The position numbers and the translations under genes are program-made. A DNA stretch of 39,415 nucleotides from a virus: the UHGV virus genome UHGV-0176211. One strand, given 5' to 3'. The notes under the pieces are model-generated. The model saw only the letters and a program-made list of their open reading frames with translations, searched no databases and was not told the DNA's origin. This document shows positions 3,993 to 28,215 of the stretch, in pieces; the stretch's first letter is position 1, and the number at the start of each line of letters is the position of its first letter.

Positions 3993-6191
3993 ATGGCAGA
4001 AAAAAAGATGACTGACTGGCATCGCAAGGTGCTGTGCAACTTTGATAATGCCTGGTCAGCAACGCAGGATATGCGTGAGCAGATTATTGAGGCTCAACGT
4101 TTCGTCCGGGTATCCGGCGCACAGTGGGAAGGCAGCACAAACGCTGGTTACTCATTTGATGAAGGCAGGTTTGAGCATTACCCGCGCTTTGAACTGAATA
4201 AGATTGCCCGTGAATGTGATCGCATCATTGGCGAGTATCGACAGAATCGCATCAGCGTTAAATTCAGGCCGAAGGACGATAAGGCATCGGAAGCGTTAGC
4301 CGAAAAGATGAACGGCAAATTCCGCGCTGACTATCAGGAAACATCCGGTGGTGAAGCGTGTGATAACGCATTTGATGATGCTGTAACGGGCGGATTCGGT
4401 TGTTTCCGCATGTGTGCCGATTACGAAGATGAAATGGATCCGAGTAACGAGCAGCGACGCATCAGCCTTCTTCCTGTTTACGACCCAGCGACATGCGTCT
4501 TCTTCGATCAGGACAGCAAGCAATATGACCGCTCTGATGCTATGTGGGCTATGGAAATGTTCTCCATGACGCCTAAAGCGTTCGAAGCTGAATACCCTGA
4601 TTCCATCGCTGCAAGCCTTTCTCGTGATGACACTGGCACTCAATATGACTGGTCAACTCCTGATGCTATCTATGTTGGTCGCTACTATGAAGCCCGCATA
4701 GAGAAGGTGAAGCTCACGGCGTGGCGCAACCCTGTTAGCGGAGAAACGGCAATCTATGATGAAGAGCAAATCAAAGATATTGTCGACGAGCTAACCGATG
4801 GTGCATTCGAACTGATCGGTGAGCGAACGGTGAAGAAACGCCGCGTTTATTGCGGTCTTCTGTCTGGCGCTGAATGGCTGGAAGAACCGAAGCGCATTCC
4901 GGGCGAACATATTCCTCTCATCCCGGTATATGGGCGTCGTTCATTTGTTGATAATCAGGAGCGAATCGAAGGCCACGCAGCAAAAGCGATGGATGCACAG
5001 CGTCTTGAGAACCTGATGGTTTCCATGATTGCAGATAACGCTACTCAGGCTGGCGGTGATGGCATTCCTGTAGTTGATGTTGACATGATTCCTGGTCCTC
5101 TCGCCAATCATTGGGCGGAGCGCAACAAAAAGCGCCCGGCGTTCCTGCCGATGGTAAGTCTGAAAAACAAAAACGGAGATATTACTGCGCAGGCTCAGGT
5201 CAGCAGTTATACACCTCCGACACAAATGCCTCCAGCTCTTGCCGGGCTATTGCAGTACACCGGAACGGCTATTCAGCAAATTACAGGTGCGTCGCAGCTT
5301 GAGAACATGCCGAGCAACGTCGCCACCGATACCGTTGATAGCATCTTTAACCGGATGGACACGCAGTCCTATATCTACATGGACAACATGGCTAAATCCA
5401 TGCGTCGCGCTGGCGTTGTGTGGCTTTCTATGGCGCGTGAGGTCTATGGCAGTGATACGCCGATGCGTATCGTTAATGAGGACGGCAGCGATGACGTGGC
5501 GTTGATGACTGGTGAAGTGGTTGACCGTCAGACAGGGCAGGTTATCGCGCTTAATGACCTTTCGCAGGGCAACTATGAAGTGACTGTCGATGTCGGTCAG
5601 TCGTTCGCTACTCGCCGTGATGCAACGGTTAAGTCGTTACTTTCCATGCTGGCACTTATCCCACCAGAAACGCCGAAACACGACCTTGTATCGTCGATGA
5701 TCCTCGACAATATGGACGGCGAAGGGATGGACGACCTTAAAGAATACAACCGCAATCAGTTGCTTCTGTCTGGAGTTATCAAGCCGAGAACGCCAGAAGA
5801 ACAGCAGATGGTTGAGCAGGCGAAACAACAACAGGCCAGTCAGCCAGATCCGGCTATGGTTGCTGCGCAAGGTCAGCTTCTTGCTGGTCAGGCTGAATTG
5901 CAGAAAGCGCAGAACGAACAGGCAGCCATTCAGGTTAAAGCATTCCAGGCACAGACTGATGCTCAGGTTGCAGCGGCAAATGTTGTGAAAATACTCGCAT
6001 CTGCCGATAGTCAGCAGAAATCTGATATCCGCGAGGCTCTGAAACTGCTCGGACAGTTCCAGCAACAGCAAGGAGACAATGCCCGTGCTGATGCAGAGCT
6101 TGTCCTGAAAAGTCAGGCACAGGGTCATGCGCAGCGCATGGACATCAGCAGCATCCTGCAAAAATCAACTCAGCAACAACCACAGCAGTAA
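3993..6191 (+). CDS. Portal protein (P22 gp1-like)
   Basis: 732 aa, position after terminase, long Gln/Ala-rich helical C-terminus like the P22 portal barrel. Confidence 0.85.
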   Translation: MAEKKMTDWHRKVLCNFDNAWSATQDMREQIIEAQRFVRVSGAQWEGSTNAGYSFDEGRFEHYPRFELNKIARECDRIIGEYRQNRISVKFRPKDDKASEALAEKMNGKFRADYQETSGGEACDNAFDDAVTGGFGCFRMCADYEDEMDPSNEQRRISLLPVYDPATCVFFDQDSKQYDRSDAMWAMEMFSMTPKAFEAEYPDSIAASLSRDDTGTQYDWSTPDAIYVGRYYEARIEKVKLTAWRNPVSGETAIYDEEQIKDIVDELTDGAFELIGERTVKKRRVYCGLLSGAEWLEEPKRIPGEHIPLIPVYGRRSFVDNQERIEGHAAKAMDAQRLENLMVSMIADNATQAGGDGIPVVDVDMIPGPLANHWAERNKKRPAFLPMVSLKNKNGDITAQAQVSSYTPPTQMPPALAGLLQYTGTAIQQITGASQLENMPSNVATDTVDSIFNRMDTQSYIYMDNMAKSMRRAGVVWLSMAREVYGSDTPMRIVNEDGSDDVALMTGEVVDRQTGQVIALNDLSQGNYEVTVDVGQSFATRRDATVKSLLSMLALIPPETPKHDLVSSMILDNMDGEGMDDLKEYNRNQLLLSGVIKPRTPEEQQMVEQAKQQQASQPDPAMVAAQGQLLAGQAELQKAQNEQAAIQVKAFQAQTDAQVAAANVVKILASADSQQKSDIREALKLLGQFQQQQGDNARADAELVLKSQAQGHAQRMDISSILQKSTQQQPQQ

Positions 6192-6281
6192 TTAACCCAT
6201 AACGTGCAATGGCTGTCTTTATGAGGCCTGGCACCCTATTGCCTTCCGATGGGCTGAACATCGAGTAAACAGGGGTAACAA

Positions 6282-7175
6282 ATGGACCAGATGGCAGAAA
6301 ACACACCAGAAGTTGAAATCGAAACCGACGCGTCAGAGCAGATTCCTGATGATGTCGAACTGGCTGAAAAAGTCGAAACAGAAGATGGCAGTGAGTCCTC
6401 AGGCAATGATGCAGAGGAGGCTACTGAAACTGATGACGACGAATCAGAACAGGAATTCTACTTTGGTGACGAAAAGCTGGATTCGCCAACCAGCGAAGAT
6501 AGCGCAGAGCATGGACTGGTAAAACACCTGCGCAAGACGATTAAAGAGAAAGACCGTGAGCTGAAAGAGCTGATGCGTCAGTCTCAGAAACCCGTCGAGC
6601 AGCAGCCAGTAATCACTCAACCACCGCGAATGCCAAAACTGGATGATGAGGACATCGGTTTCGATGAAGAAATCTACCAGCAACGCATGGCTAAGTGGGC
6701 AGAGGATAACGGCAAGTACCAGCAACAGGAGATGGCTCGCAAGCAGAAGGAGCAGGAGCTTCAGGCTGCCTATCAAGAGCGATTATCCAAATATCAGCAA
6801 CGTGTTAAGGCTCTCAAAGTTCCTGGCTATCAGGAAGCTGAGCAGGCCGTACTCGAGGAAATCCCCATCGAGACACAAAACGCGATCCTGTTTGAGTCAG
6901 AGAAGCCGGAAATCGTTGTTCTGGCGCTTGGTCGCAACGCTGAACTGCGCAAGCAACTGGCAGAAGCTACCAACCCCGTAGCAATTGGTCGTCTGCTGGA
7001 ACGTATCGAATCGAAGGCCAGAATCATGCCAAAAGCAAAAACCACGGCAGCCACAACCCCGACAGTTAAGGGGAGCAACGGCGCAGTAATCAATAACCTC
7101 GACAAACTGAAAGCCAAGGCGCTGGAAACTGGCGACTGGACGCCGTATTTCGCCGCTAAAAAGGCAAAAAAATAA
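6282..7175 (+). CDS. Scaffolding protein
   Basis: 297 aa, very acidic N-terminus, coiled-coil-like middle, basic C-terminus; lies between portal and coat. Confidence 0.75.
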   Translation: MDQMAENTPEVEIETDASEQIPDDVELAEKVETEDGSESSGNDAEEATETDDDESEQEFYFGDEKLDSPTSEDSAEHGLVKHLRKTIKEKDRELKELMRQSQKPVEQQPVITQPPRMPKLDDEDIGFDEEIYQQRMAKWAEDNGKYQQQEMARKQKEQELQAAYQERLSKYQQRVKALKVPGYQEAEQAVLEEIPIETQNAILFESEKPEIVVLALGRNAELRKQLAEATNPVAIGRLLERIESKARIMPKAKTTAATTPTVKGSNGAVINNLDKLKAKALETGDWTPYFAAKKAKK

Positions 7176-7193
7176 CCTATCGGAGCATTAAGC

Positions 7194-8453
7194 ATGCCTA
7201 ACCAATTAGCAAAAGACCTTGAAATCATGTTCGAAAACTACGTTGAAGGCTTTGAGGCCGCCTGCGTAGTTTCCCGTAACGCTAAAAAATTCCGTCCCGG
7301 TGATACGGCAATGCAGCGAGCAGGTGATGTTCTGTATCGTCCGCAGCATTACCACATGAACATTGAGGAGGGCTTGGATCTCACCAACAAAACGCCAACA
7401 GCACTGGTTCAGCGCCTTGTTCCTTCTGTGTTCAAGGAGCCGAAAAACATTCTGTACACTCTGGATGCGCGTGAAATGCGTGACCCTGAGCATAAAACTG
7501 AAGCTGGTCGCGCCGCAGGTATGCGCCTTGCTGCACAGATTGACTCTGACCTGATTTCCATGGTCACGCAGCGTGCTACTAACGTGATCACAGTTCCTGA
7601 CTCAGCAGCTGGCTCACGGGGCCTTGCCTTGTGGAATGGTGCGGCAGATATTGATGCCACCATGACGGCGATTGGTGTACCTCAGGGTATCAACCGTCGC
7701 TCTTTCTGGAACCCATTCAACTACAAAGACCTTGCTGGCGAGCTTGGTCACCGTGCCTACGCTCAGGGCGCAACCCTGACAGCATACGAAAAAGCGCAGA
7801 TCCCTCCGGTTGCTTCCTTTGATAGCTACAAGACCGATATTTCCGGTCGATTACCGGCAGGAAGCACTGAAACCTTGAAAGTATCAAATCAACCTGAACA
7901 CAAGGTTGAAGCGAAAGATTCAAATGGCATGCCTGTTGATAACCGACAGGGGACCATTACGGTATCTGCTAAAGGCTTGCAGGTTGGCGATGCGTTTACC
8001 ATCGCAGGTGTGAATTCCGTACACCAGATCACCAAAGATACCACCGGGCAGCCGCAGGTATTCCGCGTTCTGGCAGTAGACACAACAGGAACCACCGTAA
8101 CAATCTCTCCAAAGATTCTCCCTGTTGGAAATGCCGATGTTGCGAGCCGTCCATATGCAAACGTCGATGCCAAGCCGGCAGAAACTGCAGCAATCACCAT
8201 TCTCAACAAGAACGCAGCACCTGCTAACCTGTTCTGGGCTGATGGTTCTGTTGAGCTGATGTACGGCAAACTGGCATTCCCGACAGGTCAGGGTCCACAG
8301 GTAATGACAGCAACCACCGAGCAGGGCGCTACGCTGATCATGTCTTATGCCTTCGACCACATCAAAGGCGTAACCACTGCTCGTTTCACCACTCTGTACG
8401 GTTGCTCTGTACTTGTTCCTGAATATACGGGCATCGTTATTGCCGGGCAGTAA
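7194..8453 (+). CDS. Major capsid (coat) protein
   Basis: 419 aa, position after scaffold; size and order match P22/Sf6 coat. Confidence 0.8.
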   Translation: MPNQLAKDLEIMFENYVEGFEAACVVSRNAKKFRPGDTAMQRAGDVLYRPQHYHMNIEEGLDLTNKTPTALVQRLVPSVFKEPKNILYTLDAREMRDPEHKTEAGRAAGMRLAAQIDSDLISMVTQRATNVITVPDSAAGSRGLALWNGAADIDATMTAIGVPQGINRRSFWNPFNYKDLAGELGHRAYAQGATLTAYEKAQIPPVASFDSYKTDISGRLPAGSTETLKVSNQPEHKVEAKDSNGMPVDNRQGTITVSAKGLQVGDAFTIAGVNSVHQITKDTTGQPQVFRVLAVDTTGTTVTISPKILPVGNADVASRPYANVDAKPAETAAITILNKNAAPANLFWADGSVELMYGKLAFPTGQGPQVMTATTEQGATLIMSYAFDHIKGVTTARFTTLYGCSVLVPEYTGIVIAGQ

Positions 8454-16744: not shown

Positions 16745-17401
16745 TTAAGCTCTTGCAATCTTCTCAGCGCATTTACGCACAACTCGCGGTATCGTCTCTT
16801 TCAGCTCATCCCACGAGTTGACAAACTCCATATCAAGAGCCTGAACAAGAGACTTCTGTATCTCGCTGCGCAACTGGTTGGTTTTTGCATCCTGAGAATC
16901 CCAGGTATCAAACCCGGTAACTTCACGGATATCTATCGATTCCTTAACCACCTTTGCAACCTGAATGAAATGACCACTATGACCAATCCTACCTTCTGTA
17001 CGCTCAAGCATCCGACTAACTGCTGCGTTAAGCTCCACAAAACTTGCCGCACCAATGTTTCGCAACTCGACCTGTCTCTGGGTGATAAAACGATCAATGA
17101 CGAGAAAGTGGAAATAAGTGCTGTACTGCTCGGCGACATACACCGCCAGATGGAGACTTAGCCACGTTTTCCCATTCCTTCCTCTCGTTGTTTTTAACGG
17201 AATAATACCAGTCTCCTCTTCACAAACACGCATGAAGTCTTTGCAGTCATCCGTTTTCAGTATCTGAGCAAGATTTCTTGGTTGAAGACCGTTATCAAAT
17301 CTCCATCGGTTCATTTGAACGGTTAGTGTTGACGCATCGATATACTCATCTCTGGTGAACTCGACTTCACCGTATGGGAACTCTAAAGTCTGCACTTTCA
17401 T
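16745..17401 (-). CDS. KilA-N / BRO-N-like DNA-binding domain protein
   Basis: 218 aa; GKTWLSLHLAVYVAEQYSTYFHFLV resembles the KilA-N core; GGAGAA RBS; family tentative. Confidence 0.4.
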   Translation of the reverse strand: MKVQTLEFPYGEVEFTRDEYIDASTLTVQMNRWRFDNGLQPRNLAQILKTDDCKDFMRVCEEETGIIPLKTTRGRNGKTWLSLHLAVYVAEQYSTYFHFLVIDRFITQRQVELRNIGAASFVELNAAVSRMLERTEGRIGHSGHFIQVAKVVKESIDIREVTGFDTWDSQDAKTNQLRSEIQKSLVQALDMEFVNSWDELKETIPRVVRKCAEKIARA

Positions 17402-17618: not shown

Positions 17619-17777
17619 ATGAAAGGAATGAGCAAGATGCCGCAGTTCAATTTGCGGTGGCCTAAAGAAGTGTTGGATTTGGTACGCAAGGTGGCGGAAG
17701 AGAATGGTCGATCTGTTAACTCTGAGATTTATCAGAGAGTAATTGCCAGTCTTAAGAAGGAAGGGCGCATTAGCTAG
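17619..17777 (+). CDS. arc: Arc repressor (ribbon-helix-helix)
   Basis: 52-aa ORF read by eye, MKGMSKMPQFNLRWPKEVLDLVRKVAEENGRSVNSEIYQRV..., near-identical to P22 Arc as recalled; below ORF-track cutoff. Confidence 0.85.
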   Translation: MKGMSKMPQFNLRWPKEVLDLVRKVAEENGRSVNSEIYQRVIASLKKEGRIS

Positions 17778-18024
17778 AATACCTCTTCCGGCAATAGAAG
17801 AGCATTACTACTCAGCAAGGGAGGTTGCAGAGAATCTTGGAGTAACAGCCAACAAGATTGGTCGCATTGCTAACGCAAACAACCTCAAAACTGAGCGGTA
17901 CGGGAAGTTCTTTCTGGATAAATCGTCGCACTCCAGCAAACAGGTAGAGGCGTTCCGTTACAATTCTGAAGGCGTTAAGGCACTACAACACCTGCTAAAT
18001 TTCACGGCGTTTCCTGTCGATTGA
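17743..18024 (+). CDS. Hypothetical HTH-like protein at the ant position (possible remnant)
   Basis: 93-aa ORF whose only ATG lies inside arc in another frame; contains AREVAENLGVTANKIGRIA HTH-like segment; far shorter than P22 Ant (~300 aa). Confidence 0.3.
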   Translation: MPVLRRKGALARIPLPAIEEHYYSAREVAENLGVTANKIGRIANANNLKTERYGKFFLDKSSHSSKQVEAFRYNSEGVKALQHLLNFTAFPVD

Positions 18025-18061
18025 CAGCATGATTGAATTGGTATACATAACAAACGTAACG

Positions 18062-18084
18062 ACCCAGCTTCGGCTGGGTTTTTT
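18062..18084 (+). terminator. Rho-independent terminator
   Basis: ACCCAGC-TTCG-GCTGGGT hairpin followed by TTTTT. Confidence 0.7.
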
Positions 18085-18152: not shown

Positions 18153-18656
18153 TTACAGCCCCAACAGATGGTCAGCAACCATGTTTGCTGCCTTATAAGC
18201 TATAGCTGCCTCATCAATGGTGTTGAATCTCCCAAGAGTTATGTTTTTACCTGAGAGATGTATCTGAGCTTGCCATTGATTTCTGGCTTGACAGAAAGTT
18301 ACCCCCTTGATTCCAGTATTGCTATTTCGAGGTCCGACATTTAACGCATTTACGACCCTGCTAACATCTCTAAGGTTTGAGATTGCGTTATTTCTTCTGT
18401 TTCTATCAATGTGGTCAATCTCTTGTTTTGGCCATTCGCCATATACATACAGCCAGGCAAGTCTATGTGCAAAATATCTTACGCCATCAATACTAATTGC
18501 GTTATACCCACAAGGAGTGATTGTGCCAGCAGCTTTACCAACAGCGCCTCTGGCGCTTAATTTCTTTTTCCAGGTGAAAATTCCTGTTTCTTTATTGTAA
18601 TCTAGAACCTCCATAAGGCGCTCCCGAGTTACTACCTCGTGACGTCTCTTACTCAT
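18153..18656 (-). CDS. HNH endonuclease with AP2-like DNA-binding domain (homing-endonuclease-like)
   Basis: 167 aa; HNH motif [18 protein letters not shown] and AP2-like segment [37 protein letters not shown]. Confidence 0.8.
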
Positions 18657-18669
18657 TATTTTCTCCGGA

Positions 18670-21366
18670 ATGTTTATTATGCCAAATCAATCATACAACG
18701 TTGTCGTTTCACAACCAAGTAACTTATTTACTTTAGCTCGCTCGTTTAAAGCAAATGCCAATGGCAGAATTTATATCGGTAAAATTGACACTGACCCGGT
18801 AAATCCTGAAAACCGGATTCAGGTTTATGTTGAGAATGAAGACGGTTCTCACGTTCCTGTTTCGCAACCAATCATCATTAACGCTGCTGGTTACCCGGTA
18901 TATAACGGGCAAATAGCCAAGTTCGTAACTGTGCAAGGCCATTCTATGGCTGTTTATGATGCATATGGTGCTAAGCAGTTCTATTTTCCTAATGTGCTGA
19001 AGTATGACCCTGATCAGTCATTGAAATATGTAGAAGGGGCATTGCTTGTTACTGACTTAGGTAATGGGACGTTTAAGAATAGTAGCAAAGACGTTGCCAT
19101 TGGGGATAATCTAACAGGAACCAATTTTATTAGAATAAACGGCGGCGTCTATAAATGCACTCCAGTTGCAACTGGAATTGTTACTGAGATCAAAGATAGA
19201 TACATTATCGCAGGCGGGGTTAAAAGCTACCTGTCTCATATTTCCAGACATGTCAGTGGTACGCGTAGGCCGCTGAACTGGAAATTAGAATTCAGCATCA
19301 TAGACAATGAGATTACCGCAGATCTTAAAGGTCAGTATGGTTATACGACCATGGGATTTCAGGGGATTTACATAGACAGCAATGATGGAATGGTATACAT
19401 CGGCTGGCAGACGCTAAACCCCGCATCGGTATGGGTTACGGTGCATGACTGGGCAACAGGAGCATTGGTAACACGTCTTCATTTTCCGAATAACGTTGGT
19501 GCACCAGAAGGCATCCACGTTTACAGAAAAGCAGGGCAGCGCTATATTCTACTGCCGTACAGCCCATCCCGCACTATCAGAATTTACCCTATCGGAGACC
19601 CGCGCACGCTAGCTGATAAAACGCAGATCACAAACTTCACGGAATCACCCAAACTTGGAGTGCGATATCAGTTCAGTGGTTTTGGTAATACCCTGCTATA
19701 CGAAAACGCGGACATGGGTTGGCCGAAAATTTTTGATGTTGAGACAGGTGTATCCAATATCTTTAACACACTGGATATTAACAGCCTTATAGAAGGATCT
19801 TATAGTCCAATGGGGACTATTACGGTTGATGCAAATGTTGGAGGTCGCGGAGCCGGTAAACCAAAACGGCAGGGTGTCGCTCTTGGTTCTCAACGGATAT
19901 TTGCTGGTATTGGTGCATCTACCACGGCGGGATCTGGAAATACTTTCGCAGGGTTGCAGGGTTATATTGAGTACAGCCATTCTGGTTCAGAATTAGGTCA
20001 GTACCTGCTGTCACCTGCAGATTTCAAAACATACTGGGATAGTTATTCAGGGAAGAGTGTTTACTCCACTGAAAATGAGGGGGTGCAGTCTTGTGATATT
20101 TCTGGCTCTGAGGAATTGTATCTTCTACAGTCTATTCGCTATGGCAATGGGGGCGGATCAAATTATAGGACTTTAAACATCATTCGCGCTAACTGTCCAT
20201 CTAATGAACCTGGAACAGTAGACATGAGTCCGCTATCCAATGCCGCATCACAGTTATTTAACCCTCGCGGAAGGGTGATTAACGCTGGCCGTCACCCTGT
20301 AAACCCGGCTGATGGTATTGCGCTATTTACATCGGCACAAGCTATTTGTGACTATTTGCGGAATACAGATGCAGGTAGATATGTGACATATCTTGAACAG
20401 GATATGCCACTGTTTGAAGGTGGGCCATCTGCGCCAGGACAGATGACACTGCCAGCATACTGCATATTGCAGATCGACTTCATCAACGGCGATACCTGGG
20501 AAATTACAGTTAATGGAACCAACAGGGCTAATAATTATACAGGAAGGATTTCCAAAAACGGCGGGTACAACTCTTTTACTAAGGTGTCCTCCCGCAGCAT
20601 GTCGATTCTCGGATCCCCTGGTCTGGTTGATGTATCAATTCGCTCACCTAACTCACCAAATCTTCCAGAATTTGCTGGAGACTGGTCTACTGGTGTAAGT
20701 ATAGGAGAAGCAGGTGGGAAGACAAACTGGCAGCCAGAAGGAACAGGTAACGGAGCATTATGGGAGTCAGGATATGCAAAAAACCGTGTGTTGCAGATAT
20801 TCATGTCCACAACATCAAAACTGTTCTTCCGCTACGCAGGCGATGCTATTCGCGCAGGTAACACAGGCTGGGCTGAGGCATGGTCGTCGCTGAACACGAC
20901 CGTCGATTCAAGTGGTTTCATCAAAAAAGCCTCTCCGGTTGTGAAGATTTTCTCAGACGGTAGTAGTGAAACAAATCGCGAATCAGATGGGGTAACCGTC
21001 ACACGGCTGGCATTGGGTGAATATCTGATTGAGGGTTGCGTAGGTCTGAATGCAGATGCTTCATGGGGTGGGATTGATGGTGGATTTGAAATACCGCAGG
21101 ACCGAAACAAGCAGCCGCTCATCTGGCTGGATTATGTTGTTAACCAAGATGGATCTGTGTTGGTGAAAACGTTTCACCGCACTCATGATAACTCGCCCGT
21201 TTTTGCACGTAACGACATACCTGGTGTTTCGAACGGTGACCCGATCGACATTCCTGCTAATCAATTCGTTTCTGTGCGAGTACAGATGCCTGAGGATTCT
21301 GCATGGAATAAGCTTAAGGAACAACTAAATAAGGCTGAATTGATAGAAGATGATGTTGTGGAATAG
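18670..21366 (+). CDS. Tailspike protein (P22-type head-binding domain plus distinct receptor-binding domain)
   Basis: 898 aa; first ~115 aa ([38 protein letters not shown]...[13 protein letters not shown]...NVLKYDPDQ) match the P22 gp9 N-terminal domain as recalled; remainder not P22-like. True start may be ATG 18679. Confidence 0.85.
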
Positions 21367-21405
21367 GTCTGTGATATTGGCATAGGTATAAGTGTCCGCT
21401 ATTTG

Positions 21406-21426
21406 GGTGGCATTACGCCACCTTTT
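21406..21426 (+). terminator. Rho-independent terminator after tailspike
   Basis: GGTGGC-ATTAC-GCCACC hairpin followed by TTTT. Confidence 0.55.
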
Positions 21427-21428
21427 CA

Positions 21429-21776
21429 TCAATCCAGTCCGTCCGGCACTGCCTGTACCATCTGCGCCCTGACCCACGCCACCCGCGACGGGTTCATATG
21501 GCACATGTTGTTCCTTTTTTCTTCATGGTAATGCCCATTACTCTCGTTAAATGGCAACACCTCATACAGCCCGGCACTTCTGAAATCAGCGTGTAATTGT
21601 TCCAGTGCCGCTTCGCTGGAGGTACCGATTGATGTGAGATAATCGAAAAGATTGGCGCATAAACCATAATTTCGAGAAAACACCCCACCTGGTTTCGCCC
21701 CATTACTCAACCACAAATCATAAGCAATATAAAACCCGTAAAGCTGTTTTCTGATATTTTCTTTGGTTTCTTGCAT
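21429..21776 (-). CDS. Hypothetical protein (early-left operon)
   Basis: 115-aa ORF, last gene of the leftward block. Confidence 0.4.
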   Translation of the reverse strand: MQETKENIRKQLYGFYIAYDLWLSNGAKPGGVFSRNYGLCANLFDYLTSIGTSSEAALEQLHADFRSAGLYEVLPFNESNGHYHEEKRNNMCHMNPSRVAWVRAQMVQAVPDGLD

Positions 21777-21811
21777 TATTTATTACCGCCCTTTCGGGCG
21801 GCCTCCTGACA

Positions 21812-22024
21812 TTAATCGTTGTGATAACTCATAGCTTCATTTGCAGCATCAACTGGATCAACATCCCACCAGCAATAATTTGGGTCGGCTCCTTCAGGTG
21901 TCCACGGCTCTAATTCATTTTTTGCCGCATTCTCGTCGCCAGTAATTTTAAAAATCTGCTCAGAAAATTTCCTCACCCACTCGTTATATTTTTCCGCATT
22001 AATGGTTTTCTGTGTATTTAACAT
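21812..22024 (-). CDS. Hypothetical small protein
   Basis: 70-aa ORF in the leftward block. Confidence 0.35.
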   Translation of the reverse strand: MLNTQKTINAEKYNEWVRKFSEQIFKITGDENAAKNELEPWTPEGADPNYCWWDVDPVDAANEAMSYHND

Positions 22025-22074
22025 AGATATACCTCCGGTTAAGGATTAGATTTTATTTACAACACTAAATTTAA

Positions 22075-22665
22075 TTATTCAGGCGCGCGAATCTGTTCCG
22101 CATAATGCAACAATGCTTCTGTCACTTCCTTAAGCGTTACGGTATAGCCATCGTCCAGCCCGGCAGCCGTCGCGCCCTTAACGAACGCCGAGCAAAGGTC
22201 ATTAAGCGCCTGCGCCCGTACTTCAGCCAGGAAAGCATCGGTGGCTGGGTGCTCTGTCTGGCTATGCATTGCCCATTCAGATAAGTACTCGAAGCAACGG
22301 CGAAACTCCTGCCAATCACTGCACATGTTTAGGTTTCCGCCTTCACACTCGAACTGGTAATTCTCTAAACGGTCTGCAAACGCTCTGCCATTCTCGATGG
22401 CACCAAGTGGAGTATCAGATTTCAGCCCAGCATTCTCCGCCGCCGGCGCCGAAAACTTCTCGTGTGCCAACTTAACAGCCGCATCAGCCTGCTTAATTGA
22501 CTCAATCGCTTTCTGGTGGTCTTCGGATAGAGCTGAAATCTTGGCCTCCGCTTCAGCAAATTTACGCACCAGATATTCAGCGTTTGTTTCGTTAACCTTT
22601 AAATCTCGTGGGATGCATTTACCTTTCAGAAAACCATCCATCTCAATTAGTGTCATTTGTTTCAT
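22075..22665 (-). CDS. Hypothetical protein, possibly Ead/Ea22-like
   Basis: 196 aa, coiled-coil-like N-half; ATGA coupling with upstream gene; family guess weak. Confidence 0.35.
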
Positions 22666-22844
22666 TTTTTCCCACTCCGCAACATCGCATTCAGATATTT
22701 GTTGTCATTAACAGAACCGAAACTATTTCTTTTAAGCAATTCCTCTCTCGATGGCATTGGCTTTACGCGTTGGCGAATAATCATTTCTGCCGGAAGAATG
22801 CCGGGATTGTATGCAAGTCCTCTCATGGTAAATTCCTCAGTCAT
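22662..22844 (-). CDS. Hypothetical small protein
   Basis: Start chosen at internal Met (MTEEFTMRG...) overlapping the upstream stop; the track gives a longer 107-aa ORF. Confidence 0.3.
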
Positions 22845-23112
22845 TACTGATAGCGCCATAGCGTGAGCGGTAATTACGCAGGCGCGGGTCGATATATTCA
22901 GGCCACTGCATATCCTGTTTTCTTTGCAGTGGGTAAAAACTTGCTTGCCAGTTGTCGAGCCATATTTGCTTTGCGTACAGATCACTAAATCTTTTCGTCA
23001 TCCGTTCATCAGAACTACCAGCAATAAAAAAACCGCGCTCGATTTGATCACGGGCTTCTTTTAGAACCTGCTCTTTTGTTCGCGGTGGCGACGGAGGTTT
23101 TAAATAATCATT
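22837..23112 (-). CDS. Hypothetical protein
   Basis: 91 aa from MNDYLKPP...; start overlaps the upstream stop (ATGA). Confidence 0.35.
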
Positions 23113-23773
23113 CATCCTTACGCTCCATATTCTCCAGCAGAGTAGCAGCCTCTCGAGGAAGCTCGAGTGCAGGGTAAACAGCGCGCCACGCTTCGTAAGG
23201 GTAAGCATTTACACTGCCGTAGCGAGGACAGAAGACTCTTTTAACCTCCACGTTAGCCTCAACACACCAGCTCTTGAGTGGTCGCCACAGATTCTTGGCA
23301 TCAAGCCCAAAGTCTGGATTAGCCTTAACCACGCGCAGAACATCGTAATATCTCACAGTCTGTTGAAGAATCAGTTTCAGTCTTTCTTTCTCTTCCCAGA
23401 GGTCGGCGGCCAGTCGCAACGCCTCACCCATTGTTTGCGGTACAGGAAATGTCGACTTAGCCGCGCTTTGCCGCATTGTCTCCAGCTGGTCAATCAGCGA
23501 ACGACGGACAGCTTTTGACTCGCGAGCCGCCACTCTCATGGCTTGTTTGTAGCTCATGACAATAGTCACCTGATCCGCGCCACCTTTTGTCTTATCCATG
23601 GGGGTTACGAAAATTTCGTAAGCCTCCCCATCCAGCTCATCCTTAACCTTGGCAATAAAATCATTGTTGCGGACCGGTTTTTCTCCGCACAATCTCCGCG
23701 CCTCATTAACCATCTTCAATAGTGTTTGGCTATTGATGGTTTCGTCGTGCTGCGTAGTAATTAACTCATTCAT
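23108..23773 (-). CDS. Antirepressor-like protein (partial KilAC-type segment)
   Basis: 221 aa; PVPQTMGEALRLAADLWEEKERL resembles the KilAC junction segment seen in the 244-aa paralog. Confidence 0.4.
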   Translation of the reverse strand: MNELITTQHDETINSQTLLKMVNEARRLCGEKPVRNNDFIAKVKDELDGEAYEIFVTPMDKTKGGADQVTIVMSYKQAMRVAARESKAVRRSLIDQLETMRQSAAKSTFPVPQTMGEALRLAADLWEEKERLKLILQQTVRYYDVLRVVKANPDFGLDAKNLWRPLKSWCVEANVEVKRVFCPRYGSVNAYPYEAWRAVYPALELPREAATLLENMERKDE

Positions 23774-23829
23774 TTAACAATCATCTTTCATTAAAACCCC
23801 GACTTTGTAGCGGGGGTGTGACTTAACAT

Positions 23830-24345
23830 TTATAGCGCATAGACTCTGTGCTTCCCATATTGCAGCCCTACAGGACTAAACGGAATATCCATATCGAAAT
23901 AATCCGGCGGTGGATAATTTCCGTTATTGTTTTGCGGTTGCGCTTTCTGCTGCTGTGGCTTCTGTGATTGCCTGCTGGCTGCTTGTTGTTTGCTGCCGCC
24001 AATGCCGCCAAGCATTTGCATGGTTCCACCAACGCCCACGATGACTTCGGTAGTGAACCTATCCTGTCCGCTTTGATCCTGCCATTTTCTTGTCCTTAAT
24101 TTGCCTTCAAGATAAACCTCTGAGCCTTTTCGCAGATATTCGCTGGCAATTTCTACCAGTTTCCCGCTCATTACCACACGGTGCCACTCCGTCTGCTCCT
24201 TTTGCTCTCCAGTTTGCTTATCACGCCATTGTTCTGACGTAGCAACTATAAGGTTTGCAAATGCCGTTCCTGATGGTGAATAGCGCACCTCAGGATCTTG
24301 GCCTAATCTACCGATAATGATTACACGATTAACTCCACGTCCCAT
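23830..24345 (-). CDS. ssb: Single-stranded DNA-binding protein
   Basis: 171 aa, OB-fold N-terminus ([18 protein letters not shown]), Gln/Gly-rich tail ending DIPF. Confidence 0.9.
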
Positions 24346-25053
24346 TTATACCGCCTGTTTTAGTTCGTTAACTCTGATGTTCATTACCTGAACGCATTTA
24401 GCCTGCGCATCCTCATTGCCAGCCATTAATTGCCAGTCATGCTGATAACGTTCTATGAGTTTTTTCTTGTCAGTTTCTGTTGATGCATAATCGCTGAAGT
24501 CTTTCAGGATTTGTTCGCAGTCAACCGATGGAGATTTCTGGTTGGTATTTTCTGGTGATGATTTGTTACCTGATGCTGGGATTGCCCATCCCGGCAGCGA
24601 TGGAGGGAGCCAGTAAAATCCTGTTCCATCCTTCAGTTTTGCCCTGTGCCACCCCTGCTTTTTATCGAGAGATGTTTGTGCGAAACCTTCCTCAAGGTTA
24701 TACAGATACCGACCGATTCCCCACTGAACGGCAGCGCGCTTCATTGCACCGGAACGACCACCTTTGACGGCTTCTACCTGCGTGTTTTCAGCAGCATCCC
24801 ATTTGGTTACCCATTCGGAATCAATCTTTATCGATATGCCGCATTCAACGCCGCCGTTGTTGGGAATATCGCGGTATTCATTGCGCCATCCTGCTTTGCC
24901 ACAAACATCGTCAAGGCGTTTCATGATTGCCCGGTTCGTGACATAAGCCAGCACCATAGCCCACACCTTGCCATCGCGTGCTTTACCGCTTTGCTGTATT
25001 CGCCATTCGATATCTTCAGGGCAGAATGGCTCATCGAATTTATTCAAATCCAT
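24346..25053 (-). CDS. Single-strand annealing recombinase (Rad52/Erf-type SSAP)
   Basis: 235 aa; KGGRSGAMKRAAVQWGIGRYLY resembles the Rad52/22-family motif; immediately upstream of ssb. Confidence 0.6.
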   Translation of the reverse strand: MDLNKFDEPFCPEDIEWRIQQSGKARDGKVWAMVLAYVTNRAIMKRLDDVCGKAGWRNEYRDIPNNGGVECGISIKIDSEWVTKWDAAENTQVEAVKGGRSGAMKRAAVQWGIGRYLYNLEEGFAQTSLDKKQGWHRAKLKDGTGFYWLPPSLPGWAIPASGNKSSPENTNQKSPSVDCEQILKDFSDYASTETDKKKLIERYQHDWQLMAGNEDAQAKCVQVMNIRVNELKQAV

Positions 25054-25061
25054 AATTCACC

Positions 25062-25232
25062 TCAGAATGGACATGGCCCAAGGAAATAACGCTGATTTAA
25101 TACTTCAGTCTTTGCCGCATTTAAAAATACTCGAACACCTTCACGATCTCCCTTCTGGCGATACATTAACGCCTGCTGCGTGTACATGCGTCTCTGTAAC
25201 TTGCTCTCCTTCACTGTGGTTGCAAGTGACAT
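25062..25232 (-). CDS. Small ORF, possibly arf-like
   Basis: 56-aa ORF found by eye with GGAGAT RBS, immediately upstream of the SSAP gene (the position of arf in P22). Confidence 0.3.
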   Translation of the reverse strand: MSLATTVKESKLQRRMYTQQALMYRQKGDREGVRVFLNAAKTEVLNQRYFLGPCPF

Positions 25233-25294
25233 GAATATCTCCTTCGTTACCGATTAATTCTTTCATCTGACGAACGAATTCTTCGTCTGACCAG

Positions 25295-25580
25295 TTAAAT
25301 CAAACCCTCATCAGTCAGCTTGCCGACAATCCACATCTCCCCTTCGGCGTAGAACATCGCCTGAGAGCGGCCATTTTCTGTCTCCCGCATGATTCCGTAG
25401 CCCTTGTCGATAAACCATTGCTGGAAGGCACGACCTCGCTTAACAGACCGGTTGTACACGCCAAACTGCTCGAGCTGCTTGTTCAGCCACACGGCGGATT
25501 GCCCGAACTTCTGCGCCACCTGCGACGCGTTATAAAGATTGTTGCGCTCAACGATGCGATCGTAAACCTCGGCTTTCGGC
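25295..25580. repeat. Inverted-repeat copy 1 (antirepressor C-terminal segment)
   Basis: Reverse complement aligns with 37745..38031 at ~90% identity by eye. Confidence 0.6.
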
Positions 25581-25966
25581 GCTGCGATTGATAGTTTCTC
25601 CTGTGCGATCAGCTTTTGTTCATACTCATTAGCCCATGCTCTGGCAGCTTCCGCTGGGTTGGCGAAGTCCGGTAGCGCTGCTTTGCGCACCTGCTCTTCC
25701 AGTTCCTGCCAGCGATCGATAATCCTTGCACGAAGTTCGACACTGTAACCAGAAACCACCAGCAATGTGTCACGCTTAGTTAAAAGCCATTCTCTTTGCG
25801 ATTGGTTGTTATATCCCTTGTAACTTACTGATTTACTTGATTCACTCAAATTTGAGTGAATGAAATCAATATCTCTTAATACATTGTCATGCCGTTTGCC
25901 TGTCAGTTCCGCAATCTCACGGCTAGACATTGTTTTTACTTCTGCGGTACTTATTAAACTGTTCAT
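25295..25966 (-). CDS. Antirepressor (Rha-type N-domain plus KilAC-type C-domain)
   Basis: 223 aa; N-terminal MSSREIAELTGKRHDNVLRDI, C-terminal ~95 aa nearly identical to the C-terminus of the 37297..38031 product. Confidence 0.65.
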   Translation of the reverse strand: MNSLISTAEVKTMSSREIAELTGKRHDNVLRDIDFIHSNLSESSKSVSYKGYNNQSQREWLLTKRDTLLVVSGYSVELRARIIDRWQELEEQVRKAALPDFANPAEAARAWANEYEQKLIAQEKLSIAAPKAEVYDRIVERNNLYNASQVAQKFGQSAVWLNKQLEQFGVYNRSVKRGRAFQQWFIDKGYGIMRETENGRSQAMFYAEGEMWIVGKLTDEGLI

Positions 25967-26388
25967 GATTTCATCTCCTCTCTCGCCGTCTCGTCGCGCA
26001 GGGGTTTAACCAGCATCAAATAGCCGGATTCAGTGAATACCCTCAACCCTCTAGTGGGGATGTCAAAAAACGGGAAGGCCGTTTTTTTATCAAAATCAAT
26101 AACATAAGTATCCTCGCCATCAATAAAATAGCTTGAGTTTCTTGTGTAGCTGTCACGAATTGTAGTTAACGGAACGCCATGCACAACAGCCACCTGCTGA
26201 AATGTAACCACACGCTCACCATTAAACTCGCAAGCTATTAGTGGGATATCATTAATCATCACGCTGTTCATGATTTTCCATCCTATCGTTGATATATTCA
26301 AATCAGGTTCTTTATCGCCGCGATAAAAACAATTTAAGACTCGCATCCTATCCCGAGCTTTATCATCATCAAAAAATGTAAAACTCAT
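25963..26388 (-). CDS. ORF6N-type domain protein
   Basis: NDIPLIACEFNGERVVTFQQVAVVHGVPLTTIRDSYTRNSSYFIDGEDTYVIDF parallels the N-terminus of the 256-aa product at 35577..36347; start uncertain (26388, 26271 or GTG 26403). Confidence 0.5.
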   Translation of the reverse strand: MSFTFFDDDKARDRMRVLNCFYRGDKEPDLNISTIGWKIMNSVMINDIPLIACEFNGERVVTFQQVAVVHGVPLTTIRDSYTRNSSYFIDGEDTYVIDFDKKTAFPFFDIPTRGLRVFTESGYLMLVKPLRDETAREEMKS

Positions 26389-26537
26389 TTCCTGCGATAC
26401 CACGGAAGGTTGACAGCTGATTTCATCGCTTTATTTGCTTCAAGCCACATTTTTGAGTCACCAATAAATCTGGCTATTACTGCTTTGTTCTGTGCAGCAC
26501 GAAGCATCTGGTGATTGATGGCTATTTCATTGCGCAT
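26385..26537 (-). CDS. Small ORF (50 aa)
   Basis: Found by eye; its stop overlaps the ATG of the downstream ORF6N gene (ATGA). Confidence 0.25.
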   Translation of the reverse strand: MRNEIAINHQMLRAAQNKAVIARFIGDSKMWLEANKAMKSAVNLPWYRRK

Positions 26538-26719
26538 AATAAGACCTCAACTCTTTTCCATCCGTCACGTAATTTACGGGTGATTCGTTCAAGTAAAGAT
26601 TCGGAAGGGCAGCCAGCAACAGGCCACCCTGCAATGGCATATTGCATGGTGTGCTCCTTATTTATACATAACGAAAAACGCCTCGAGTGAAGCGTTATTG
26701 GTATGCGGTAACGCCGCGC

Positions 26720-27088
26720 TCAGGCGGCTTTGATAGTCATATCATCTGGATCAAATATTCCTGATGTATCGATATCGGTAATTCTTATTCCTTCGCTACC
26801 ATCCATTGGAGGCCATCCTTCCTGACCATTTCCATCATTCCAGTCGAACTCACACACAACACCATATGCATTTAAGTCGCTTGAAATTGCTATAAGCAGA
26901 GCATGTTGCGCCAGCATGATTAATACAGCATTTAATACAGAGCCGTGTTTATTGAGTCGGTATTCAGAGTCTGACCAGAAATTATTAATCTGGTAAAGTT
27001 TTTCCTCTGTCATTACGTCATGGTCGATTTCAATTTCTATTGATGCTTTCCAGTCGTAATCAATGATGTATTTTTTGATGTTTGACAT
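26720..27088 (-). CDS. Hypothetical protein with acidic C-terminus
   Basis: 122-aa ORF in the early-left operon; function unknown. Confidence 0.4.
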   Translation of the reverse strand: MSNIKKYIIDYDWKASIEIEIDHDVMTEEKLYQINNFWSDSEYRLNKHGSVLNAVLIMLAQHALLIAISSDLNAYGVVCEFDWNDGNGQEGWPPMDGSEGIRITDIDTSGIFDPDDMTIKAA

Positions 27089-27104
27089 CTATTCATATCC
27101 TCAC

Positions 27105-27134
27105 AGATAAAAAATCGCCCTCATACTGGAGGGC
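27105..27134 (-). terminator. Terminator-like hairpin within the leftward operon
   Basis: On minus strand GCCCUC-CAGUAU-GAGGGC followed by GAUUUUUU. Confidence 0.45.
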
Positions 27135-27262
27135 AAAGAAGATTTCCAACAATCAGAACAAGTCGGCTCCTGTTTAGTTACGAGCGACATTGCTCCGTGT
27201 ATTCACTCGTTGGAATGAATACACAGTGCTGTGTTTATTCTGTTATTTATGCCAAAATAATT

Positions 27263-27505
27263 TTAATCAGCAATAAAATCTTCTGGTAATTTATCAACCA
27301 CTTGATGGCTTATTATCAGCCATTTGCCATCCTTCGTCCCGTATGCATATTTCTGGCCTTTTATCATCATGTGTTCAGCTACTGCCTTAACTGCCTGTTC
27401 GGTTACATCTTCTTTCTTTCCTACCCACATTCCTTTTTCAGTGTTTAATGTTCCTTGAAAAATACGACCACTTAATGGGCTTACGCCCATAGTTTTTACT
27501 CTCAT
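27263..27505 (-). CDS. Hypothetical small protein
   Basis: 80-aa ORF. Confidence 0.4.
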   Translation of the reverse strand: MRVKTMGVSPLSGRIFQGTLNTEKGMWVGKKEDVTEQAVKAVAEHMMIKGQKYAYGTKDGKWLIISHQVVDKLPEDFIAD

Positions 27506-27569
27506 GTATCAGTCCTCAAACAAGTGGTTTGCTGCCAAAACAATGAACCATCCGGAAATTCCAGATAGT

Positions 27570-27797
27570 TCATAATTCACTCTTCAATACTTCCAACTTA
27601 CTAATCGCCGAAAGATATCCGCGCTGATAGGGCATCATCATTCCTTCGAGCTTGCCACTTCTTAACTCCTCCCTGAGCAATTGTATTGCTTGATCAATAA
27701 CCTCTGCCTTAGCGTCCTTTATGGCTTGCTTGCGGGGCTTTGCTTTCTGCTTTGGCAGATTTCTCAAGCATGATGGAATGTATGTCTGATTCATCAC
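27570..27797 (-). CDS. Hypothetical small basic protein
   Basis: 75-aa ORF immediately downstream of the N-like gene. Confidence 0.4.
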   Translation of the reverse strand: MMNQTYIPSCLRNLPKQKAKPRKQAIKDAKAEVIDQAIQLLREELRSGKLEGMMMPYQRGYLSAISKLEVLKSEL

Positions 27798-28070
27798 TTA
27801 CCTCGCTGTCAGTTGTTTTGATTTCCGGTAGCCTGCCGCGTAAAGAGCTACGTTTGGAAGACAAGTTGAACCTTCATATTTTCTGGTCAACGTTGTCAGA
27901 GTTATCACTTCTGCTCTCATTGCTGGTTTGCGCTTGCATTGCAAGACCACTCGTGAAGGGGTTGGCCTGTGTAGCTTGTCGGAGCTGATCGCCTCCTGAC
28001 TTTGCAGATTTGCACGACGAGCTCTACGGCGAGAAGCTGCGGTTCCTTTAAATTCTGTTTTTCTGGACAT
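27798..28070 (-). CDS. N-like transcription antiterminator
   Basis: Start at internal Met with GGAGG RBS; Arg-rich motif TAASRRRARRANLQ; C-terminus LPNVALYAAGYRKSKQLTAR resembles P22 gp24 as recalled. Confidence 0.6.
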   Translation of the reverse strand: MSRKTEFKGTAASRRRARRANLQSQEAISSDKLHRPTPSRVVLQCKRKPAMRAEVITLTTLTRKYEGSTCLPNVALYAAGYRKSKQLTAR

Positions 28071-28179
28071 AGATTCCTCCCGAATAAACTTTGGCGATGC
28101 AATCTCGAAGCCCCTCCTGAGACGGTTGCTTCGGCATTGCATCCCACAGCTTATGTGGTTGGGTGATCTGGCTTTTCAG

Positions 28180-28215
28180 CCACGTAGTCGAGTGTTCGAC
28201 GTTGTTTAAAGAGCC
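28180..28215 (-). promoter_or_regulatory. nutL-like site (boxA plus boxB hairpin)
   Basis: Minus-strand GGCTCTTTAAACAAC, then hairpin GTCGA-ACAC-TCGAC, then TACGT; nearly the same architecture recurs at 29152..29183. Confidence 0.55.

Follow-up and report, generated by a model that had tools for sequence, protein, structure and literature searches.

The DNA analysed here, UHGV virus genome UHGV-0176211 (39,415 nucleotides, one strand; hereafter the window), is a P22-like genome whose tailspike gene (18670..21366, + strand) begins like that of P22 and then runs on into about 780 residues of another kind; the question raised by this locus is what that body is and what it recognises. The answer favoured here, at a probability of about 0.72, is a four-module exchangeable receptor-binding protein (RBP) of a P22-like (Lederbergvirus-type) podovirus, in which a predicted propeller-tower body replaces the beta-helix and is capped by a PF25670 domain. 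Mosaic tailspikes built on the P22 head-binding domain are textbook knowledge, and no new principle is involved. The novelty lies in which body was swapped in, a sequence family that is very rare and is capped by PF25670, and in its predicted architecture, which matches that of platform-tower receptor binders; structures of such binders have to date been solved for Staphylococcus and Bacillus-type phages only. Two unrelated podovirus anchors were found to carry the body in nearly identical form, and siphovirus-type and tail-collar-type anchors in more distant form. The gene and its modules were delimited as follows:

18670..21366, + strand: whole tailspike/receptor-binding protein gene (open reading frame list; start-site sequence; homologues of 895 residues)
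18679..19020, + strand: module 1, P22-type head-binding (virion attachment) domain, residues 4-117 (PF09008; PDB matches; 84-90% identity to characterised tailspikes; synonymous divergence, dS, 0.31 against the TO6 prophage copy)
19000-19020, + strand: conserved junction motif KYDPDQS, residues 111-117, closing module 1
19021..19302, + strand: module 2, neck/linker, residues 118-211, confined to the close body family (no Pfam match; predicted local distance difference test, pLDDT, below 50 in AlphaFold2, AF2)
19303..20199, + strand: module 3a, short helix and predicted five-bladed beta-propeller "platform", residues ~212-510
20200..20892, + strand: module 3b, predicted all-beta "tower", residues ~511-741, with the invariant D518 (AF2 core model; Foldseek alignments)
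20893..21294, + strand: module 4, residues 742-875, a distal cap shuffled widely among phages, PF25670 "phage tail protein C-terminal domain" (Pfam)
21295..21366, + strand: C-terminal acidic helical tail, residues 876-898, and stop codon (helix predicted with low confidence at residues 878-888 of the reading frame, 875-885 of the model)

The open reading frame (ORF) was uninterrupted and spanned exactly 18670..21366 on the + strand (898 codons plus stop, 898 residues). The true start is probably the ATG at 18679 (M4), giving a protein of 895 residues, because the close homologues are all 895 residues long and begin at the equivalent of M4, and because a GGA lies ~9 nt upstream. The structural genes of the window were found in P22-like order (terminase, portal, scaffold, coat, gp4-, gp10- and gp26-like genes, then the ejection proteins), and this backbone was 94-95% identical to Sf101, CUS-3, HK620-type phages and Kapi1. 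The tailspike gene was located at the gene-9 position, past the ejection-protein genes and a degraded immI region, as is the case for P22-type tailspikes. Over its full length the protein was matched by phrog_20129 (function not annotated) and by a 90%-identity cluster of ~182 database sequences; close copies were found at 96.6-97.2% nucleotide identity in 11 of 5,426 complete E. coli genomes, where they are annotated only as "phage head-binding domain-containing protein".

The attachment module was identified by three comparisons. PF09008 (Head_binding) was matched at residues 4-116 (E 2.4e-62); a PDB sequence search aligned residues 9-117 with Sf6 gp14 (7sg7, E 4e-58) and P22 gp9 (2xc1, E 1e-43), the match being confined to that region; and BLASTP against the full-length HK620 gp9, Sf6 gp14 and CUS-3 endosialidase gave 90%, 88% and 84% identity, respectively, over residues 4-122. 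Past residue ~122, BLASTP against the same three proteins (E<=10) returned nothing better than E about 1, and none of 50,697 deposited phage genomes covered at least 80% of the tailspike, either as DNA or as protein. A sequence-only reading of this DNA had proposed that only the first ~115 residues resemble P22 gp9, that the protein is ~230 residues longer than the P22 tailspike, and that a domain swap had kept the attachment module; all three claims held, the length difference being 898 - 667 = 231 residues. Collinearity of the full length with a characterised tailspike, which would have spoken against a swap, was sought in the PDB, in the 50,697 phage genomes and in the HK620, Sf6 and CUS-3 proteins, and was not found.

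Recombination at the junction after KYDPDQS (residues 111-117) is demonstrated by these alignments, because anchor and body differ in dS and because the same body is found on other anchors. Compared with the TO6 prophage copy, dS was 0.31 in the head-binding domain and about 0.02 in most of the body. In a search of 5.8 billion proteins, residues ~120-898 recurred at 65-75% amino acid identity on PF18668 (TSP1/gp66-type), PF26208 and PF12571 (tail-collar fibre) anchors and on an unannotated N-terminus, and similarity to the homologues on other anchors started at residues ~121-125. At ~97% nucleotide identity, the body was found on that unannotated N-terminus in three of the 5,426 complete E. 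coli genomes. In strain XJ55, an epsilon15-like prophage was found to carry a protein 93% identical over residues 121-895, the DNA identity being 97-100% between about nt 19200 and a point shortly before the stop codon; its N-terminus is an anchor of the epsilon15 tailspike type, with 71% identity to epsilon15 itself and 87-89% to epsilon15-like phages of E. coli. A homologue of 917 residues in Kluyvera intermedia (NZ_JAKCNS010000011.1, 5596-8349) had a PF18668 anchor and 69% identity in the core. This gene is located directly downstream of a GpJ-like tip protein of 1025 residues at a prophage edge adjoining lepA, and the position after a GpJ-like tip protein is the locus where small siphoviruses carry tailspikes. 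The reverse combination was found in homologue P0008, in which PF09008 and PF25670 flank a different middle. These copies show that the same body circulates among unrelated tail types. One further segment of the gene was found to have a separate history:

19501..19698, + strand: imported patch in the propeller, residues 278-343 (87-88% nucleotide identity to each of the three close copies, with flanks at 97-100%; dS 0.43, omega 0.14)

The combination of high dS with low omega (the dN/dS ratio) means that this segment was imported from a diverged allele, and by this divergence pattern it is a gene-conversion tract.

The body itself is composite and, as modelled, not a beta-helix. Pfam recognised two domains only in the whole protein, PF09008 and PF25670, and the neck and core between them had no match even at E<=1; NCBIfam gave no match. 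The sequence-only reading had treated the ~780 residues as one unrelated body: the absence of similarity to tailspike bodies stood, while the unity did not, the last ~160 residues being PF25670. Distant relatives (21-33% identity) resembled the tailspike over residues ~217-741 only, and ended at the equivalent of W734 or ran on into a Peptidase_S74 intramolecular chaperone in place of PF25670. The core family is rare. Queried with residues 118-741, a word-indexed database returned seven clusters and a third word-indexed profile search added no further homologues; an exhaustive HMMER scan of 1.84 billion representative proteins gave 12 matches to the core (4 below 1e-30); IMG/VR (2.9 million viral contigs) contained 6 copies, 4 with the P22-type and 2 with the epsilon15-type anchor; and the body family was present in 14 of the 5,426 complete E. 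coli genomes. Across all 13 aligned cores the residues W255, E280-G281, Y306, K399, Q401, G415, P449, E468-N469-E470, D518 and G632 were invariant, and W255, E280-G281, Y306, K399, Q401, P449 and E468-N469-E470 belong to module 3a. Self-BLAST of the tailspike found no internal repeats, and the blades and tower subdomains were not detectable by sequence.

The fold of the core was predicted with AF2 as a monomer, using a cropped core of 532 residues and an alignment of 13 sequences more diverse than that of the full-length run. Two beta-rich segments were predicted, at lower confidence, where the towers of phi11/P68-type RBPs are made of two similar subdomains; the tower region was mostly at pLDDT 70-88 with disordered loops. 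The core is predicted to form a five-bladed beta-propeller and a tower, followed by the separate C-terminal module. Foldseek alignments to the phi11, P68 and 80alpha RBPs spanned the whole 532-residue core (567-601 columns). The predicted propeller and tower measure ~285 and 220 residues, against ~295 and 200 in P68; the five-bladed propeller platform that characterises RBPs of the phi11 Gp45/P68 gp17 type was present in the model, and the invariant residues fell on the predicted first strands of successive blades. With hhalign, the single segment aligned between the core and phi11 Gp45 paired the near-invariant Q231 with phi11 Gln165, a residue of the modelled N-acetylglucosamine cavity. Both phi11 Gp45 and P68 gp17 are trimers consisting of a stem, a platform of five-bladed propellers and an all-beta tower, and their receptor, N-acetylglucosamine on wall teichoic acid, is proposed to be held within the propeller cavity or next to it (PMC4901313; PMC6795507). 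The core is predicted to fold, and to work, like such a platform-tower RBP; family membership by descent is not claimed.

The anchor and gene position are also those of the enzymatic tailspikes, and the body could be an endoglycosidase of another fold that cleaves one O-antigen type, as in P22, Sf6 and HK620. This explanation is possible but doubtful. No glycoside-hydrolase Pfam family was matched in the tailspike even at E<=1, and for the five-bladed propeller glycosidases of GH43, GH32 and GH62 neither a match to the family hidden Markov models nor the Asp/Asp/Glu catalytic residues were found. The closest structural relatives, phi11 and P68, are binders with no demonstrated enzymatic activity (PMC4901313; PMC6795507). 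Unlike HK620 and Sf6, neither the TO6 prophage nor the window has an O-antigen-modification gene beside the tailspike.

The carriers of the body bear on the same explanation. Five lysogens with a body at least 96.7% identical were assigned to four different O-antigen clusters: TO6 to O16, WP7-S17-ESBL-01 to O25, XJ55 (with the epsilon15-type anchor) to O88, and MS14384 and SCU-109 to a common rfbBDAC-wzx-glf cluster with no assigned name. A single O-serogroup shared among the lysogens was rejected on this count. O-loci can switch after lysogeny, so the endoglycosidase explanation is weakened only. Two further proposals of the sequence-only reading gave way at this point: that the swap changes O-antigen specificity found no support in five carriers with four O-antigen clusters, and the implied beta-helix body with catalytic residues is replaced by the predicted five-bladed propeller and tower.

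All four distinct carrier O-antigen clusters encode rfbB, rfbA and rfbC (dTDP-6-deoxy-L-hexose synthesis). A rhamnose- or 6-deoxytalose-containing motif as the common ligand is a candidate lead only. In Klebsiella phages and prophages, n-bladed beta-propeller domains make up 18% of the predicted domains, are functionally unclear and are associated with a broader host range (PMC12491483). A bolder extension, which we regard as speculative and improbable, would derive the propeller-tower body, as an enterobacterial branch, from the RBP lineage with which Gram-positive phages bind teichoic acid, and would have it recognise a cross-serogroup saccharide (e.g. a 6-deoxy-L-hexose motif, the lipopolysaccharide core or enterobacterial common antigen).

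The C-terminal cap offers another candidate for the receptor-binding site. PF25670 (Phage_tail_C_2) was matched at residues 742-875 with E 1.9e-59 and 199.9 bits (gathering cut-off 27), and in the PDB sequence search residues 729-875 aligned with the C-terminus of SU10 gp12 (residues 636-785). A solved structure of the domain was looked for in 7z47 and this candidate was rejected, SU10 gp12 being built there for residues 1-90 only. Across 326 phage records, tail fibres or spikes with PF25670-like sequence were matched, among them those of T1 and Kuravirus, the side fibres of lambdoid phages, the lateral fibres of T5-like phages and a depolymerase spike of an Acinetobacter phage; the domain was at the extreme C-terminus in both records inspected, the T1 tail fibre and the depolymerase spike of Acinetobacter phage Brutus. 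Against the TO6 copy it had 0 nonsynonymous and 2 synonymous differences. This conservation and distal position, together with the lectin/GOLD-like beta-sandwich head that ends some siphovirus lateral fibres (PMC12143355), would fit PF25670 as the true receptor-binding tip, with the propeller-tower core mainly a structural spacer or a secondary, reversible site. We consider this unlikely. The core homologues P0121, P0123 and P0124 end at "TGWKKY" and lack PF25670, and others have a Peptidase_S74 chaperone instead, which indicates that the core can function without it; the identity of 58-71% among phages whose hosts and receptors differ widely is better explained by a general role in structure or folding than by specificity; and in SU10 the domain closes the proximal fibre protein rather than the distal one. 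Its generic distribution, its absence from distant core homologues and its position, which is that of the S74 chaperones, favour a part in structure or folding, or as an accessory lectin, over that of specificity determinant.

Set against the propeller-tower RBP are the following points. The fold comes from a monomer AF2 model built on just 13 sequences, with a predicted template modelling score of 0.58, and the full-length AF2 model (nine sequences) was poor (pLDDT 49.7) and was rejected as unusable. No significant sequence homology was found to phi11 Gp45 (hhalign probability 0.08%, E 0.62) or to any PDB chain, and common descent is therefore unproven; when the profile of the core alignment was searched against PDB sequences, the best match was a WD-repeat blade at E 0.023, and nothing was significant. 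That the invariant residues line a central pocket is deduced only from the order of the strands. PF25670 ends a proximal long-fibre protein in SU10, in which only residues 1-90 of the gp12 chain are built. Finally, the carrier O-types are heterogeneous, and O-locus switching after lysogeny could confound their comparison.

With these reservations, the four-module RBP would act in the following manner. The P22-type head-binding domain would attach the trimers to the tail hub in the manner of P22 and Sf6, to which its homology is very strong. The neck would lead into a body standing in for the canonical right-handed beta-helix, in which three five-bladed beta-propellers are predicted to form a platform around the trimer axis, followed by the all-beta tower, and the distal end would be capped by a lectin-like or trimer-stabilising PF25670. 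The central pocket of each propeller, with a predicted lining of family-conserved polar and acidic residues (Q231, D236, E280, K399, Q401, E468, E470 and D518), would most likely bind, and possibly cleave, a cell-surface saccharide and so bring about primary adsorption. The gene itself arose by recombination at the conserved junction after KYDPDQ.

Most copies of the tailspike are in prophages, its family is rare among complete E. coli genomes, and the immI region upstream in the window is degraded and has an HNH insertion; the gene could on these grounds be a decaying non-functional prophage remnant or a functionless chance chimera. That is very improbable. The ORF was intact (895-898 codons) in the window and in all copies examined, in a cluster with ~182 members. 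Functional constraint was evident from purifying selection, omega being 0.33 for the whole gene against the TO6 copy and 0.14 in the diverged patch. The gene is the sole tailspike of an otherwise complete P22-type structural module, and a circular, apparently replicating phage genome of 39.9 kb carries it as well.

The circular genomes of this kind are NZ_CP146561.1 and NZ_CP146567.1, recorded as "plasmids" of 39.9 kb from hospital-wastewater E. coli, which are complete P22-like phage genomes with this tailspike. A phage-plasmid lifestyle was considered for them and rejected, since int and xis are encoded and cI is frameshifted; they are probably lytically replicating or excised phages. In relatives int is located directly downstream of the tailspike. 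No ORF of integrase size was found in the early-left region of the - strand (21400-28200) or in the whole window, and the integrases and excisionase of two relatives had no tblastn match in the window. The window phage may be non-integrating or virulent.

Several neighbouring genes were recorded. A free-standing gene of homing-endonuclease type with HNH_3 and AP2 domains (18153-18656, - strand) is separated from the tailspike start by a gap of 13 nt; it is placed between a tANT-like terminator (18061-18080) and gene 9, where relatives have an arc gene. The terminator follows a truncated antirepressor remnant of 93 residues (17743-18024, + strand). The HNH_3/AP2 gene might promote recombination at the tailspike junction, a hot spot. 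In the immI-equivalent region, an ORF at 16745-17401 (- strand) matched PHROG 6095 ("amidase", lysis category) and showed 87% nucleotide identity to genes of Jersey-like siphoviruses of Salmonella; in this podovirus it has the look of a moron gained by horizontal transfer. Further downstream (30601-33507, + strand), a Toprim primase/helicase of 968 residues was found with Hint and LAGLIDADG domains. Its orthologue in a relative, of 626 residues, aligned as residues 1-372 and 360-626, flanking an insertion of ~330 residues, an arrangement indicative of an intein that carries a homing endonuclease.

Should the predictions be borne out, the family would give a small, naturally occurring case of host-range modules that plug into different tail architectures, a candidate glycan binder for E. 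coli that is no beta-helix and may be broad in range, and a defined junction (KYDPDQ / neck) at which P22-like phages or tailspike-based reagents could be engineered. If the cross-serogroup interpretation were true, the body would be a portable broad-range adsorption module for P22-like, epsilon15-like, siphoviral and tail-collar-type phages.

Among known systems, P22 gp9, Sf6 gp14 and HK620 gp9 share with the present protein the PF09008 anchor, the gene position, the recombination junction after KYDPDQ and, presumably, the trimeric attachment to the tail hub. In contrast to them, the body here is predicted to lack the right-handed parallel beta-helix and has no beta-helix Pfam family, and the protein carries an additional PF25670 and is ~230 residues longer. 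CUS-3 is the precedent for a P22-type head-binding domain on a non-beta-helix, propeller-containing body. The S74 chaperone is typical of the CUS-3/K1F endosialidases, and distant homologues of the present core also end in Peptidase_S74; the tailspike of the window has no similarity to CUS-3 beyond residue 122, lacks PF13884 and ends in PF25670. Endosialidases use a six-bladed sialidase propeller, whereas the best structural matches of the modelled core are five-bladed.

Where phi11 Gp45, the 80alpha RBP and P68 gp17 have a coiled-coil stem that binds iron, the present protein has the P22 head-binding domain and a beta-rich neck, and its PF25670 cap is additional. The phi11 cavity is lined by Gln, Thr and Met, whereas the present family has invariant acidic residues; the host is Gram-negative, and the ligand therefore cannot be wall teichoic acid. 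The Klebsiella propeller "depolymerase" domains (PMC12491483) are likewise propeller receptor-binding domains of enterobacterial phages, and their host breadth parallels the heterogeneous carrier O-types described here; they were defined by ESMFold/Foldseek screening, do not form a family that includes this protein and were compared by description. Finally, SU10 gp12, the T1 tail fibre and the lambdoid side tail fibres (Stf) of mEp234, HK446 and phi80 have homologous C-terminal regions of ~135-160 residues (58-71% identity), which are C-terminal there as well, and which follow fibrous shafts in those proteins and a predicted propeller-tower body in this one.

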